In this document: positions 13,096 to 63,145 of the stretch, piece after piece
Layout of the letters: each line of letters opens with the position of its first letter
How positions within the stretch are numbered: position 1 is the stretch's first letter
Origin: Dictyostelium discoideum
Taxonomy: Eukaryota
Direction: 5' to 3'
Assembly (NCBI GenBank): GCA_000004695.1
Contig: CM000152.2
Coordinates: 1,184,001 to 1,248,000 of the forward strand
DNA length: 64,000 nt
Notes under the pieces: generated by a model
Databases searched by the model: none
What the model saw: the letters and a program-made list of their open reading frames with translations, nothing else
What the model was told of the DNA's origin: nothing
Made by a program: the position numbers and the translations under genes

Positions 13096-16000
13096 TTATT
13101 AAATCAATACTAACAAAAAAAAAAAAAATTAATAAAAAAAGATATAGAAACAGGAGAAAAACAACCAAATATTTATAAAAATTATGATATATCAATACTT
13201 AAAAAAGAATATGAATCAATAATTAAGTAAATATTTCCAAAAAAAAAATAAAAAAAAAACTTTTCCAAAAAAAAAAAAAAAAATTAAAAATTTTCTAATC
13301 AACTTTTTTTTAAAAAAAAAAAAAAATAGAGATCATAATATAAATGATGTTGATTATGAAAAAGATTTATCAAATATATATACTCAATTAAACAATATAC
13401 AGTTTTCAAATATTACAAATTTTAATAATTTAGGTTAGTATATTTTTATTTTTTTTTTTTAATTTTTTTTTAATTTTTTTTTTTTATTTTATTAACTCTA
13501 TTTTTTTTTTTAGATTGGTTTTTAAATTTAATTAATAATCAAACAAATATTAATAATGGTATCGAAAACAATAGTAATAATAATGAAAATATTAATGAAA
13601 AATTAAATATTGGTATAATTGTTTCAAGTTTTGAAGGAATGTATTCAACATCTGGTATTGGTACAGTTTATTCTATACTTTCAGATTTTTTAGTAAAGAC
13701 TGGTAAATATAATGTTACAGTAATATATACAAGAGATGATCCACCCGAGAAAAAGAGTTTTTATAATTGGAAAGTCGATCTTAAAGAGAGAGGTATCAAT
13801 TTAGTTCATTTACCATCATCTGTGATTAGAGTTGATAATCCATTGTTTGTTAGAAAATCCTATCAAGTTTATCAATATCTCAAGACTCAATCATTTGATG
13901 TTTTACATTTCCCAGATTTTGAAGGTATGGCATATTATAGTTGTTTGGCCAAAATCAATGGTGTAGAGAAACAATTTCAAAATGTTACCATTGTAATTGG
14001 TCTTCATGGTCCATCTTCTTGGGTTAGTAAATCAAATACAAAAAAGGTCTCACTGGATCACGATCAAGTTGAATTGGATTTTATGGAAAGAAAATCAGTT
14101 GAAATGGCCGATATCATTTGGACACCAAGTAATTATATCGTTAGTTGGTTAATAAAAGAGGTTGGTTGGACAATTCCACAAGAGAATCTTTATCTATTAC
14201 CTTTTCTTCCACCTCCATCTCCATCAACTGCAATCACCAACAATAAGAAAACTTCAAGTTCAATTAAAGAAATTGTATTTTTCGGTCGTTTAGAACAAAG
14301 AAAAGGTATAGTTTTATTTTGTGATGCTTTAGATCAATTGGTTTCAAATTCAAATTATAAATCATTATCAAATTTAAAGATTACATTTTTGGGTCGTTCT
14401 TCTGATATCATCGTTACTGAACCAAATGGTGGTGGTGGAAAGGTTGATGCAATTTATTATATTAGAGATCGTTCAATTAATTGGCCATTTGAAATTAAAT
14501 ATTTAGATGAAAAATCATCAAGTCAAGCAATCGAATATTTAACTGATGATTTACATAAATTGGTAGTTATTCCATCATTAGAAGATAATGCACCTTATAC
14601 TCTCTATGAATGTCTTTACAATAGAATACCATTCATTGCTTCACATCAACTTTCAATGGTACCACTTATTGAATTAAATGATCAATCTACAGTACTCTTT
14701 GAAATTGATTCTAAATCATTATCAGAGAAATTAGATCAAATTTTATTAAATGGTAAACATTTAATTGGTCATCCAATCATTTCAAAAGAAAAATCAGAAT
14801 CTGCTTGGTTAAAATTTTATTCAACTACAATTTTTACAAATTCAATTAAAAATAGAAAACAATTTATTTTAAAATCAACACAACAACAACAACAACAACA
14901 ACCATTAGTAACAATATGTTTAACTCATTTTAATAGACCAAACTTTTTAAAACAATCAATTGAATCAATTGAAAATCAAGATTATAAAAATTTTGAAGTA
15001 ATTTTAGTTGATGATGGTTCAACTTCAATTGAATCAATTGATTATCTTTATTCATTAAAAGATAAATTCAAAGAGAAAGGTTGGAAAATTATTATGACTG
15101 AAAATAAATATTTAGGTGCTGCTCGTAATACTGCTGCCTCTCAAGCCAAAGGTAAATATTTAATGTTTTTAGATGATGATAATTATATGTATCCAAATGC
15201 AATTTCAACCTATGTTTCAATCGCTACAAATACAAATGCCAATGTTGTTAGTTCACCACATTCAATATTTAATTCAACCAATACTCCAATATCAAATGAT
15301 GTTATTATTCAAAGACAATGGGTACCATTAGGTCCATCACTTTCCGTTGGTCTCTTCAAGAATTGTTTTGGTGATGCAAATTTCTTTATTGAAAAGTCAT
15401 CATTTAATTCAATTGGTGGTTTCACTGAGGAAGTTGGTGTTGGTTTAGAAGATCATGAAATTTTGGCAAAACTTGTTATTCAAGGATTTAAACTTTCCGT
15501 TTCAACTGAACCATTATTATACTATAGATTCCATGATTCAGTCAATCAAATGATTTTTACAACCGATTCAAAATCAAATCAAATGCGTTATATTCGTCCA
15601 TTCTCTGAAATCCTAAGTAATGGTCATGTTCCAGTACTCAAGGTTTTAGCAAACAATGCAATTCATGCTCAAAGTAAACGTGTTTTGGTAAACACTTGTA
15701 ATATCACGCTTTCATCGATCCATCCAAATTATGGTCCAACTTCTGGTGGTTCATTGGTATCTATTAGTGGTTCTGGTTTTAATTGTGGCATTAGTAATGT
15801 ATTGTTTGGTGGTGCTGCATGCTCAAATCCAAAGGTTAAAACAGATGGACTCTTAACTTGTACAACTCCTTCCTCTGATAATAATGGTCCAGCTGATATT
15901 GTTGTCAAAGGTTCTGATGGTAGTACCGTTACATTAACTGAAGCCTATAACTATGTTTCAACCATTGCAATTACTTCATGTGCACTCGGTGCAAACAATG

Positions 16001-48002: not shown

Positions 48003-51000
48003 TTATTGAATTTTATAAACTGTTTTCATGAATTTTAATAATTGAATATCTTGTTTTGTTAAATCTTCAGACCAACCTTCTTTAAGAGCATCCAAAGATT
48101 CACGAGTGATTTTAGACATCCATTGTTTTTTATCATCAAAGTGTCTGTAAATTGTAGTTTTAGTGTTGTTATCATCGATGGCAACAGAGACGACATCATC
48201 TTTTTTGGCGAGGGTAACATCTTTTTCGTTGAGTTTAATACCAATGACTTTACCAACATCAGCGCAATTTGATTCTGGTACACAAATTGGAGTACCAATA
48301 CGAAGAGTACCTTCTTTAACACGAACACCAACAAGAATTGGATTTGAATTTCTGAAAACGTTAGTAACCTCCAAAATACATGGCCAAACACAGATACTAG
48401 CGGTTTCAGCACGAAGTTTCTCTTTGATAGCACCGAAATGTTTCTTTAATTTCTCCTCGAATAAATAGATTGTCTCATCAGAGAGAACTTGAACTTTCAT
48501 TTCATTGGCGGCTTGAATGGCAGATTCTTCAATCTTTACATCGAAAGCCAAGAGAATTGCGTATTTTGGATCCTTATCTAACATGATACTTGCGTTCATA
48601 ATGTGTTTCTTGTGAACTGGACCAATGGCGACATTGGCGACTGGAATCTTGATCTTTTTGAGGAAATTTAAAAAGGCTTCCAAAGAACCAAGAGTAGAGG
48701 CTTGAACAGACACACCAATACCAGAGGTTTCGACATCATTGAGTACAGAATCGACTTCACGTTTAGCTTCGGCTCTAATCTTTTCGATATCGTCATTTGG
48801 ACCAACGACATGAAGTGAAGTACCTGGAACAGCTTTTTCAAGGCCTGGTGCAACGATTTTAATACCCATGGCAGCACGAATACTCTTATGATTGATGAAT
48901 TGTGATTTAACACGAGATTCACGAAGTGGTGGTGGAGTGAGTAAAGAACGAATAGAAGTTTCAATTGGACCATTGAAACCGGATACTACAATCTTATCAC
49001 CTTCATTCAAAGTACCATTTACCAAGACAACATCAATGGTTGTACCAAAACCTTCGATGACTTTAACTTCCAAGAGTGTACATTGGAGTTGATTTGTGAA
49101 TTCTACTTTATCAAGCATTAACTTTTGCATCAATTGAATGACTACCAACATTAAATCTGAAATACCTTCACCAGTGTTGGCAGAGGTTGGTACGAGAGAA
49201 ACGTATTTTCTATGATCTTTATTACGCCAGTAGAGTTCAGCATTCAATTCTTGACCGGCCAAAGCTGCAATGATATCCTTAACTTTGTAATCAAATTCTT
49301 GAGCAGCAGATTTTGATTGAATCTTGTAGGCTTCTTTAAAGTCTGTATTTACACATGGCTTCCAATCGTAAATTCTATCGACTTTATTTAAGGCAACAAT
49401 GAATGGTGTTTTTCTCATACGTAAGAGATTGATGGACTCTAAGGTTTGAGCTTGTAAACCATGCATAATATCAATGACTAAAATTGCCAAATCACAAAGA
49501 CCTGAACCTCTTGAACGTAAATTGTTGAAAGATTCATGACCTGGTGTATCAATGAGTAAGAGACCTGGTAATTTAAAGTCCATTTTAATCTTTTCAGCAA
49601 ATGATTTGGTTTGTTCTTTAATTGCATCGACTGGAATAAAAGAGGCACCAATTTGTTGGGTGATACCACGTGCTTCACCACCTTGAACGTTGGTATTACG
49701 AATTTTATCCAAAAGACTTGTCTTACCTGTATCGACATGACCTAAAATACAAATGATTGGTGAACGATATGATTTATCTGCAAAGGTTGTAGTTGGATCT
49801 GTAGTTGGAATGAGTGCTGCTGCGGCTGCTGCTGCGGCTGCTTTTGCTTTCTTCTTTTCCTCTTTTGCTGCTAATCTCTGTGCTTCCTCTTCCTCCTCTT
49901 TTCTCTTGGCCTCCTCTTCCTTCTTCTTTTGAATCTCTTCAACGGTTTCATAATCATCATTATCCCAACTATCCATAACCTCAACTACGTCGTCCTTTGG
50001 TGCTGATGTTGGTTCTTCAATCTTTAATTTTTCGACTGATTCTGTAATACTTGAGACTTGATTTTGTTTTTTACCTCCACTCTTTGTTTTATTTGTTGAT
50101 TTTTCTTTCTTTTCACCGACTGCTGAAATGTTTACACCCAATTTTGCTAATTTTGCCATTCTATCAGCTTCGGCGGCTGCGCCAGCTTGTTTCTCTTTCT
50201 TTTCTGCTCTCTTTTTAGAGTTTTCAATTGACTTTAATCTTGCTTTTTCATCATCAATAATCTTTTGTTCAGCAGCACGTTTCTTCTCTTCCTCTTCTCT
50301 TATACGTTTTTCCTCCTTTTCACGTGCAATTCTTTCTTCTTCTTGTCTTTGTTTTAATAAAAATCCACTCAATACCTCTGGTTCCTCTGGTTTCTTTGGT
50401 GCTGGTTTTTTAGCTTGTTGTTTTGCTGCTGATGGTTTTGCTGCTGGTGGTTTTTTGGCATTATTTTTTTTATTATTATTATTTTGTGTTGGTTTGGTTG
50501 GTTTCTCTTCTTCCTCTGATGATGATGATTCTTCTTCACTTTCAGAAGATGATTCAACAGCTGCTGCTTTTTTAGCTGGTGCTTTTTTATTTTGTTTTGC
50601 AGCTGGTTTTGATGGTTTCTTTTTTGTGTCCTCTTCAGATGATGATTCTTCAGATTCTGATTCACTCTCTTCTGATGATGATTCTACAACTGGTTTCTTT
50701 TTATTATTATTATTATTGGTTGGTGCTACTTTCTTTGATTGTTTTGCAGCTGGTTTTGATGGTTTCTTTTTAGTATCTTCTTCAGATGATTCTTCAGATT
50801 CTGATTCACTCTCTTCTTCTTCTGATGATGATGATTCTACAACTGGTTTCTTTTTATTATTGGTTGGTGCTACCTTTTTTGATTGTTTAGCAGCTGGTTT
50901 TGATGGTTTCTTTTGAACTTCTTCTTCAGATGATGATTCTTCAGATTCTGATGATGATTCATCTACTGGTGCAAATTTAGAAGTTGGTTTTTTTTTTGAA

Positions 51001-56716: not shown

Positions 56717-58542
<1,826 letters not shown>

Positions 58543-58781
58543 ACAGTTGGAAATAACAAAAGTGGAATTGAAAAAAATAAAAAAAAAAAACCCTTTTTCT
58601 TCTTCTCCCAACATTACCTTTGAAATAATCACGTCTTTCACTCAAAATATATTTTATTTTCCCTTCCGCAATATAACATTTAAAATCCTTTCAAAATATT
58701 AAAAAAATTATTAAAATATTAAATAAAATTTATTTTATTAAAAGTTTATCTCTTCATCAGGATAAATAAAGGATAAAGGGG

Positions 58782-58816
<35 letters not shown>

Positions 58817-59061
58817 GAAATTAAAAATAAGACACTGTTGTGAAAAAAAAAAAAATTATTTCGAAAATTTTTTATATTTATAAAATTTCATCACTTCCAT
58901 TGTGGATCATTTGATAAAAATAATTAATCGAAATAATCACCCGTTTTTTTTTGTACATATAATTCCAACACCCAAAATAATATAAATATATATAAATTAA
59001 ATTAGATTAAATCAAATCAAATCAAAATCAAATATAATAAAATAAAATAAAATAAAATAAA

Positions 59062-59559
59062 ATGGTAAATTATCTTATGTATATTTTTTTTTTTTTTTTT
59101 TACATAGAATAAAATAGAAGCATTAGTACCAAAAGCTTTTTATATAAAAAGTGGGATCAATAAAACTAATCTTTTTTTTTTTTATTTACATAGAGCAAAA
59201 TAGAAGCATTAGCACCAAAACCTTTTTTATATGATTTAAAAGGTAAAAAGATAGCAGTTCGTTTAAAGTGGGGTGGTATGGAATATCGTGGTATTTTAGC
59301 ATCAGTTGATAGTTATATGAATTTACAAGTATGATTCAAACTTTATTTATTCATTTTTTCAATATTATTATAATATCTATATAATACTAATTTAATTTCT
59401 ATTTTTAATTTTAATTTTTAGTTAGCAGCAACAGAAGAATGGATAGATGGCGCAAATAAAGGTCCATTAGGTGAAGTTTTAATTAGATGTAATAATGTTT
59501 TATTTGTTAGAGGAATTGATGACGAGCAACAACAATCACAACAACAACAACAAGAATAA
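59062..59559 (+). CDS. snrpF: Small nuclear ribonucleoprotein SmF. Exons 59062..59064 (ATG only), 59194..59328, 59422..59559.
   Basis: The spliced product '[46 protein letters not shown]|[38 protein letters not shown]...' is near-identical in register to human SmF '[70 protein letters not shown]'. Donors are ATG|GTAAAT and CAA|GTATGA. Acceptors are catAG at 59193 and tttAG at 59421. Confidence 0.75.
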
Positions 59560-59678: not shown

Positions 59679-60853
59679 TTATTTATCTCTTTTATAAATT
59701 TTTGATAATATTTTTAAAAATACGCTTGGAGGTAAATAAATACAAGTGGTTTTAATTTTATCTATTAAAAAATTGTAACTTGTATTTTCATAATCTTTGA
59801 AAATTTTTTCAAGATTAATTTCTTTATAAATCTTTTTTACAATTTCAACATCAGTTGGATTATCGAAACCATAATGTTTTTTTAATAAATTGATTTGGTC
59901 TGGAGTACCATTGAGAATTGCTTGACAAATCATCCATGAACATTTATTCTCTTCAATATCTCTACCGATTTTACCAAATACTTCTGGTGAACCATAACAA
60001 TCTAAGAAATCATCTTGAACTTGAAAATATACACCCATTGGTAATAAAATATCTTTTGCTGTTGTAAATGCTTGTTCATGGTTTATTTTGGACATTAACA
60101 TTGCTAGTGCAACTGGAAAAAAAAATGAATAATATGCTGTTTTATATTCAGTAATTCTAGTATGACTATAAAAAATAAAATTAATTAATCACACAGACAC
60201 ACATATGTTAATTAAATCTAAAACATATTAATAATAATAAAAATAATAATAATAATTATAAATACAAACTTTTTTAAATTAATTGATGAGAAATCACCTC
60301 TAATTGGTTGAGTTGTTAAATCTAATAATTGACCTAATTGAGTTTGAAATCCGGTTTTATGGAATAATTCTACAATATTTAAATAGTAGGATTCATTTTT
60401 AAAGTATTTTTCAAGTAAAATAAAAACACATGATTCAATTATAAAGGAATCATTAATTGCAGCTAAACCAACTTCTTGATCAGAGTTTGGTCTCTTTTGT
60501 TTATACCAACATGGTTTACCCCTTCTTTTTAGTGACTGATCCATTATATCATCAGAGACCAAATAGCATGCTTGAAATATTTCAACACACCAACCCAATG
60601 TTTGGGCTTGGAAAATTTCATGTCTTGTTAGAGCTCTACCTTCATTTAATGATTCCAATGATTCAAGTACACTAATTCCTCTATTCATTTTTCCACCTGT
60701 TGAATTTGCTTTTATCACGGTTTCAATCCAGTGGATTGATTCTTTTGGAAAATCAATCTTTTCCAATTCCTTTTTAATTTCATTTAATAAAATTGGGAAC
60801 AAATTAGCAAATTCTTCCAAAACTTCTTTATCATTCTTTTTCAAATTATTCAT
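59679..60853 (-). CDS. Farnesyl diphosphate synthase (polyprenyl synthetase), paralog A. Exons on the minus strand: 60853..60270 and 60165..59679.
   Basis: The first Asp-rich motif is 'LGWCVEIFQACYLVSDDIMDQSLKRRGKPCWY' and the second is 'FQVQDDFLDCYG'. 'GKIGRDIEENKCSW' and the C-terminus 'KIYKRDK' fit the FPPS consensus. Donor AA|GTTTGT is at 60269 (phase 2) and acceptor tatAG at 60166. The junction reads '...[33 protein letters not shown]...'. Confidence 0.8.
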
Positions 60854-61548: not shown

Positions 61549-62725
61549 TTATAAATCTCTTTTATAAATCTTTGATAATAATTTAATGAAAACTTCTTGT
61601 GGCATAATTCTAACTGATTTGATCTTACTGATAAGGAAAGCATAGGATTCATCTTCATAATCTTTGAAGATCTTTTTGAGACCAATTTCACCATAAATCT
61701 TTTTAACTAATTCTACATCAGTTGGATTATCGAGACCATAATGTTTTTTTAATAAATTGATTTGTTCTGGTGTACCATTGAGAATTGCTTGACAAATCAT
61801 CCATGAACATTTATTCTCTTCAATATCTCTACCAATTTTACCAATAACAGCTGGTGAACCATAACAATCTAAGAAATCATCTTGAACTTGGAAGAATTCA
61901 CCCATTGGTAATAAAATATCTTTTGCTGTTGAAAATGCTGGTGTACTAGTAATACCTGCCATTAACATTGCTAATGCAACTGGTAAATAAAATGAATAAT
62001 ATGCAGTTTTATATTTAACAATACGACGATAACTTTTAAATAAAAAAAAAAATATATTAGTATTTTGTATATATAATAAATATTTAATATATATATATAT
62101 ATATATATAATCTAAAAATATATATTTACGTATTTAAAGTGAATAATGAGAAATCACCTCTATTTGGTTGAGTTGTTAAATCTAATAATTGACCTAATTC
62201 AGTTTGATAAGATGTTTCATGGAAAATATCTAAGATATCAGCATAGTATGGTTCATTTCTAAAGTATTTTTTAATGAGGATATAGATGCAAGATTCCAAG
62301 ATGAAAGAATCATTAATTGCAATTGAACCAATGGTACCATTGTTTGAGATTGGATTTGCTTGTCTATACCAACATGGTTGACCTCTACGAGTGATCGATT
62401 GATCCATAATATCATCAGCAACTAAAAAGAATGCTTGAAGCCATTCGACACACCAACCTAAAACATTTGCTAAAAAGATTTCGCTACGTGATAATTGACG
62501 ACCTTCAACTAATAATTGAAGTGAGTGGAGTACGGTGAGACCACGATTCATTTTACCACCTGAAACATTAACATTGATCATCTTTTCAACCCATGCAATT
62601 GTTTGTGGTGGCATGTCCATACCTGGTAATTCCTTTAAGATTTCATTGGTTAAAATTGGGAAAATCTCCACAAAATCTGCTAATTCTTCTTTTGCTGTCT
62701 TTATTGGTGCTGATGTTTGGTTCAT
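61549..62725 (-). CDS. Farnesyl diphosphate synthase, paralog B, the second member of the tandem pair. Exons on the minus strand: 62725..62130 and 62032..61549.
   Basis: 'MNQTSAPIKTAKEELADFVEIFP...' aligns with the mature N-terminus of human FPPS ('MNGDQNSDVYAQEKQDFVQHF'). It carries 'LGWCVEWLQAFFLVADDIMDQSITRRGQPCWY' and 'FQVQDDFLDCYG'. Donor AC|GTAAAT is at 62129 and acceptor aaAG at 62033. The junction reads '...[34 protein letters not shown]...', collinear with human 'RYKSIVKYKTAFYSFYLP'. The intron position matches paralog A. Confidence 0.8.
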
Positions 62726-63145
62726 GTTTAATTCTAAATATAAAAACAAATATAAAAATATAGAATAAAAAAATAAAAAATAAAAAAAAATAAAAAAATA
62801 AAAAATTGTTTTTTTTTTTTTTAAACAATTAAACAATTTAAAAAAAGAAGGGGTTTTTAAATGGGATAAAAAAAAAAAAAATAAAAAAAAAAATAAAAAT
62901 TTATAAAAAAAAAAATGGGTTAATATTTTTGAGTTAAGGCACAACACAATACAAATAAGGTTATGTAAGTAACATAATAAAAAAAATAAATAAATAAAAA
63001 AAAACAATAAATTTTTTTTTTAACAAAAGAAAATAAAAATAAAAAAATTAAAAATAAAAATTTTATGATTATTAATTTTTTTTTTTTTTTTTTTTTTATA
63101 ATTTAATTAAAAATAGAAAATCTATTAATAGTTTATAATACAAAC

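Follow-up and report, generated by a model that had tools for sequence, protein, structure and literature searches.

The start-codon intron of Dictyostelium discoideum snrpF contains a copy of its own acceptor and exon start, probably a young relic bypassed in splicing

The window analysed, a 64-kb stretch of D. discoideum DNA with a G+C content of ~22%, contains on its plus strand the gene snrpF, the coding part of which begins with an exon of three bases. The ATG (59062-59064, in the context aataaaATG followed by gtaaat) is directly abutted by the donor GTAAAT (59065-59070) of intron 1, a phase 0 start-codon intron of 129 nt (59065-59193) that runs from GTAAAT to ACATAG. Its acceptor, TTTACATAG, has its last base at 59193, and exon 2 (59194-59328, codons 2-46, confirmed by the protein match) opens with AGCAAAATAGAAGC. 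Intron 2 (59329-59421, 93 nt, GTATGA to TTTTAG) has a TACTAAT upstream of its acceptor, and exon 3 (59422-59559) encodes codons 47-91 and the stop TAA; both lie on the plus strand, as do exon 2 and intron 1. The spliced product has 91 aa and is 100% identical to the D. discoideum AX4 SmF protein (XP_641988.1 / EAL68012.1 / Q54XP2), the annotated gene of which sits on a 6.36-Mb contig. The LSM/Sm fold PF01423, precomputed for the identical protein, covers most of SmF, and the predicted protein aligns with residues 5-84 of human SmF. Among solved structures the SmF chains match best (6e-31 to 7e-21), compared to 1e-15 to 4e-14 for the chains of the paralogue LSm6, and the homologues are named SmF in the databases. 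The protein is thus SmF rather than LSm6, and the gene is D. discoideum snrpF, the model of which is already present in the AX4 annotation.

The bare ATG is the sole start that completes the Sm fold and the conserved N-terminus (PKPFLY...), since no ATG occurs at 58940-59061, the first ATG of exon 2 encodes Met30, and the exon 2 reading frame is stopped just upstream by the TAG of the genuine acceptor. The initial annotation had proposed the ATG-only first coding exon and had allowed for a different first exon with an ATG further upstream; the former equals the annotated AX4 protein and is kept in five dictyostelids, and the scan of 58940-59061 gave no candidate for the latter. When intron 1 is read through, translation stops after 16 codons. 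A scan of the window for ATGGTAWRT gave three further matches; the two that were read are internal coding sequence and the third lies at 13816 on the minus strand. The ATG-only exon is correct, already annotated and unsurprising.

The surroundings of snrpF have several features of their own. Upstream, at 56717-58541 on the plus strand, lies a gene with motifs of the A_deamin (tRNA/RNA-editing) type, e.g. DSHAEI, which is split into at least two ORFs. An A_deamin gene (PF02137) is also found upstream of SmF in Heterostelium album, the pair being syntenic across distant dictyostelids. A run of ~40 A occupies 58766-58815, between the end of the A_deamin-like gene and the promoter region of SmF. 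Pairwise alignment with Dictyostelium dimigraforme showed a conserved upstream region (58868-58968, plus strand) with two shared blocks, ~58868-58912 and 58931-58968, that are near-identical between the two species despite their diverged introns (...ATTTCATCACTTCCATTGTGGATCATTT... and AATAATCACCC..TTTTTTGTACATATAATTCCAA). Judged from this sequence conservation, the blocks 58868-58912 and 58931-58968 are probably the snrpF promoter or the start of its 5' UTR. Downstream, on the minus strand, two tandem paralogous genes resembling polyprenyl/farnesyl-diphosphate synthases are located at 59679-60853 and 61549-63007; their C-terminal ORFs are identical at 109 of 139 aa, and each gene is apparently split by an intron of ~100 nt. 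In D. purpureum and D. dimigraforme one polyprenyl synthase gene is seen beside SmF, within loci too short to show a second copy.

The SmF loci of five dictyostelids were compared: D. discoideum, D. dimigraforme (L004), D. purpureum (L001), H. album (L002) and Tieghemostelium lacteum (L003). The position of the start-codon intron is common to all five SmF genes. In the four other species the ATG is followed directly by GTAAAT, GTAAGA or GTAAGT, and exon 2 continues the frame, its first residues being N/S-K/R-I/V-E/D. Intron 1 has a length of 109 nt in D. dimigraforme, 117 nt in D. purpureum, 84 nt in H. album and 56 nt in T. lacteum. The start-codon intron of snrpF is ancient and common to all Dictyostelia examined. 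ATG-only exons are thus conserved in this group, and gene predictors may miss such exons. As a separate observation, SmF of D. dimigraforme exceeds that of D. discoideum by 17 residues in its C-terminal poly-Q/SQ tail (108 compared to 91 aa; positions 2440-2520 of L004, in exon 3), and the SmF proteins of D. purpureum, H. album and T. lacteum have no such tail, which points to a fast-evolving expansion of CAA repeats.

Intron 1 of D. discoideum contains a near-copy of its own acceptor and of the start of exon 2, as noticed in the initial annotation. The inserted copy (59083-59145, plus strand) comprises a T-run (59084-59101), a pseudo-acceptor ACATAG (59102-59107) and a pseudo-exon (59108-59145) that matches the exon 2 start. 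Its source (59169-59232, plus strand) consists of the polypyrimidine tract, the genuine acceptor ending at 59193 and the initial 39 nt of exon 2. The ungapped repeat pairs 59083-59141 with 59169-59227 over 59 nt, with 90% identity and a spacing of 86; 6 of the 59 positions differ and there is one indel in addition. When one indel in the T-run is allowed, the repeat reaches the TATAT at 59145 and 59232, respectively. The local alignment score of 36 is far above that of shuffled controls (10.3 ± 1.8, maximum 17). A DUST-masked self-BLAST of the window gave four non-simple local direct repeats, of which just the one in snrpF spans an intron-exon junction, the other three falling in repetitive coding sequence. 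One repeat of the window, with a period of 144 nt, is found at 50650-50950 on the minus strand (50718-50762 and 50862-50906 are 93% identical) in a coding region; in its translation, acidic Ser/Glu runs alternate with KKKP...AAKQSKK blocks, and the protein looks like one of the Nopp140/SRP40 type. A short repeat of 58944-58963 and 59091-59110, consisting of a T-run and ACATA, was taken as a chance match. Intron 1 gave no sign of a functional RNA: searches of the entire window gave neither Rfam matches nor tRNAs, and the fold was no better than that of shuffles (z = +0.86).

The pseudo-acceptor (TTTACATAG) is intact, and its run of 18 T is longer than that of the real acceptor. The pseudo-exon retains AAT at codon 2 and carries the changes GCA>GTA and CC>GC and a frameshifting deletion of one T. 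In the initial annotation the string quoted for 59088-59140 is ~6-8 nt off, and the pseudo-exon start was set at 59141; the actual start is 59108, so the alternative junction is 59064^59108. The early stop proposed for splicing to the upstream copy agrees with our translation, in which use of the acceptor at 59107 leads to a product of 32 aa followed by TAG.

Spliceosomes generally splice to the AG that comes first after the branch point, and they require a minimum distance from donor to branch. In intron 1 of snrpF a scan for branch-point motifs and AGs found a single branch-point consensus, ACTAAT at 59165-59170 (plus strand, intron positions 101-106), which is presumably the one used; its branch A, 59169, would precede the genuine 3' splice site by 24 nt. 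All six other AGs of the intron, the pseudo-acceptor included, are upstream of ACTAAT, and the first AG after it is the genuine acceptor (59192-59193). The pseudo-acceptor is separated from the 5' splice site by 43 nt, and ACTAAT lies 62 nt downstream of it. Within the 43 nt upstream of the pseudo-exon neither ACTAAT nor CTAAY is found, and the single yTnAy motif (CTTAT) is 12 nt from the donor. D. dimigraforme has the block TCAA..TAAAACTAAT around the branch point as well. Among the branch-point hexamers of D. discoideum introns, ACTAAT ranks first (18.7%, PMC2483917); the median length of these introns is 103-104 nt (PMC2483917; PMC4683709). The shortest dictyostelid intron seen here has 56 nt, with 43 nt between its donor and the branch A. 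When introns in the window were crudely surveyed by ORF bridging, with lengths from 25 nt allowed and ~9 donors, no candidate below 70 nt emerged; this survey stands in for the minimum intron length of D. discoideum, for which a literature search gave no figure. [quoted passage not shown]

The copy is absent from the four other dictyostelids, all of which have the start-codon intron. When intron 1 of D. dimigraforme, D. purpureum, H. album and T. lacteum was aligned with its own acceptor and exon 2 start, the scores were 7-9, at or below the shuffle means. D. dimigraforme is a close relative, with only 5 differences from D. discoideum in the 135 positions of exon 2, and it is the only species in the 90% identity cluster of the SmF protein. 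Its exon 2 opens with AATAAAATAGAAGCATTAGCACCAAAACCTTTTTTATATG. Codon 2 is AAT in D. dimigraforme, D. purpureum and H. album as well as in the intronic copy of D. discoideum, whereas the functional exon of D. discoideum has AGC. As the copy keeps the ancestral AAT and is absent from the relatives, it appears to have been inserted recently and in the D. discoideum lineage only. The divergence between the two copies is ~10%, which is less than the difference between D. discoideum and D. dimigraforme in intron 2 (67 of 107 aligned columns identical), suggesting that the insertion is younger than the split of these species. A metagenome scan with a 26-nt exon 2 word conserved in three Dictyostelium species gave 0 matches. 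The age of the copy and the constraint on it are only roughly bounded, as the comparison left out the closest relatives, D. firmibasis, D. citrinum and D. intermedium, and natural isolates. Among the species compared, the copy occurs in D. discoideum alone, and codon 2 shows in which direction the changes went.

We consider it likely that the ancient start-codon intron was enlarged by a young duplicative insertion and that the copy is bypassed, being a neutral relic. After the split of D. discoideum and D. dimigraforme, ~63 nt (the T-run, ACATAG and ~38-39 nt of exon 2) would have been copied into the 5' half of intron 1. The segment would have entered a T-run close to the intron's 5' end, ahead of the ancestral branch point, approximately doubling the intron length (~65 to 129 nt). 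The copy would have been made while codon 2 was still AAT, the functional exon subsequently changing from AAT to AGC (N to S); the copy then may have picked up GCA>GTA, CC>GC and the one-T frameshifting deletion. Template switching or unequal exchange between T-runs are candidate mutational mechanisms.

A pure tandem duplication with a unit of 86 nt does not fit the locus. Removing one unit leaves an ancestral intron of 43 nt that has no branch point, and the spacer at 59146-59168 matches the exon, by eye, at ~8 of 22 positions, but matches the branch-point block of D. dimigraforme. The spacer contains TCAATAAAACTAAT, corresponding to TCAAATTAAAACTAAT in the D. dimigraforme intron, and 8 of 1000 shuffles reach the score of this match. 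The initial annotation had proposed a local tandem duplication that created a competing acceptor; a local duplication did make a second acceptor-like site, but the 43-nt ancestral intron and the shared branch-point block speak against the simple tandem form. Creation of intron 1 itself by a tandem duplication was also rejected, the intron being present at the same position in all the species that have no copy.

The copy would probably not be spliced, as 43 nt from the 5' splice site would leave too little room for a branch point and the spliceosome would choose the first AG past ACTAAT, the genuine acceptor at 59192-59193. Bypassed in this way, the copy would drift as a neutral relic. We infer both the lack of splicing and the neutrality from the sequence and its geometry.

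The opposite view, that the copy is a young, species-specific decoy or poison 3' splice site that would lower the amount of productive SmF mRNA, by NMD or by retention, when spliceosome capacity is high, appears quite improbable. Decoy exons that cause intron retention have been described in mammals. In its non-productive form the T-run and AG of the copy would bind 3' splice site factors and remain unspliced, thereby slowing the removal of intron 1 or promoting its retention and damping SmF. The intact 18-T tract and ACATAG are as expected for such a decoy, and a transcript retaining intron 1 would end translation at the stop after 16 codons. The copy is, however, not conserved and has no branch point of its own. 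Furthermore, T-runs are found everywhere in D. discoideum introns (~89% A+T, PMC2483917), and one more is unlikely to be special. We therefore give such a non-productive decoy a rather low probability.

It is highly improbable that the copy is a true poison 3' splice site, the use of which would lead to the stop after 32 codons and to NMD, and so to homeostatic or autoregulatory control of a snRNP core protein, which was the role suggested in the initial annotation. The early stop brought by the acceptor at 59107 and the intact acceptor and T-run of the copy are consistent with such a role. D. discoideum also retains UPF1 and SMG1, i.e. NMD machinery as known from the literature (PMC5709506), and human SNRPB, self-regulated via a poison exon, offers a precedent (PMC7764535). 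Splicing to the copy would, however, need a 43-nt intron in which the only branch-like motif is CTTAT, 12 nt from the 5' splice site, the sole ACTAAT being downstream of the pseudo-acceptor. The copy is moreover frameshifted, and four other dictyostelids, even the close D. dimigraforme, lack it, while the known poison exons of splicing factors lie in highly conserved sequence (PMC7764535). Alternative splicing is rare in D. discoideum ESTs, with 107 events in 4,246 genes (PMC2397502). The exact 32-aa product is absent from a collection of 15 billion proteins, which is weak evidence, since normal SmF lacks a transcript-assembly record there too. The copy thus has the premature stop of an AS-NMD poison site, but neither a spliceable site nor conservation across species was found.

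There is a very slight chance that the segment was falsely doubled in the reference by an assembly or sequencing error. The region is AT-rich, filled with homopolymers and hard to assemble, but a collapsed or doubled read would yield identical copies, whereas these differ at 6 of 59 positions and by an indel, and the differences have a clear evolutionary polarity, the copy having retained the ancestral AAT. An in-frame micro-exon of 18 nt at 59108-59125 (AATAAAATAGAAGCATTA), which would use the weak donor GTACCA and add NKIEAL to the N-terminus, is arithmetically in frame when read from the sequence but has a negligible probability, requiring the same 43-nt first intron and a non-consensus donor, and its predicted 97-aa product is absent from the protein collection. 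Exact look-ups of two N-terminally truncated ORFs in this collection found neither of them.

As it stands, the locus matters little, the gene model being annotated and start-codon introns being a described class. The snrpF copy nevertheless offers a clean, dated case of an intron doubled by copying its own acceptor and exon start, with the direction given by the ancestral AAT. If the copy is a relic, as we consider likely, it would be a natural illustration of how a perfect-looking acceptor is passed over if the branch point comes after it and the donor is too near. If it were used after all, AS-NMD control of an Sm protein would have originated very recently here: a duplication of 63 nt would have given an amoebozoan Sm core gene a new feedback loop, with bearing on how feedback loops arise.

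Several known systems can be compared with snrpF. Start-codon introns, i.e. phase 0 introns between codons 1 and 2, are a described class (Nielsen & Wernersson 2006, PMC1626468) that is enriched in short, conserved, lysine-rich proteins (PMC1626468). In snrpF, likewise, the ATG forms the final three bases of exon 1, a GT donor follows directly and an AG acceptor precedes the in-frame codon 2, and SmF has the small size, conservation and lysine richness typical of these proteins. Dictyostelium was not among the organisms surveyed there (0 mentions in PMC1626468), and snrpF is otherwise ordinary for the class. In human SNRPB (SmB/B') a poison cassette exon is coupled to NMD, has highly conserved intron flanks and has been shown experimentally to be used (Saltzman 2008/2011, as cited in PMC7764535). 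Like SNRPB, snrpF is an Sm core protein gene with an intronic element, inclusion of which would add a premature stop. Unlike that of SNRPB, the snrpF element occurs in a single lineage and sits at a position where it would hardly be spliced, and any use of it is hypothetical.

Tandem duplication of AGGT is a model of intron gain. As in that model, a short local duplication of an intron-exon boundary altered the structure and length of the snrpF intron (~65 to 129 nt). The snrpF intron, in contrast, predates the duplication, as seen in five species; it was enlarged and not created, and the repeat is not cleanly tandem. Cryptic or pseudo 3' splice sites are ignored when they lie upstream of the branch point, as described by the scanning model, and the snrpF copy resembles them in being an AG with a good pyrimidine tract upstream of the sole branch-point consensus. 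Unlike pseudo-sites that are chance matches, however, the snrpF pseudo-acceptor is a recognisable copy of the real acceptor together with exon sequence.
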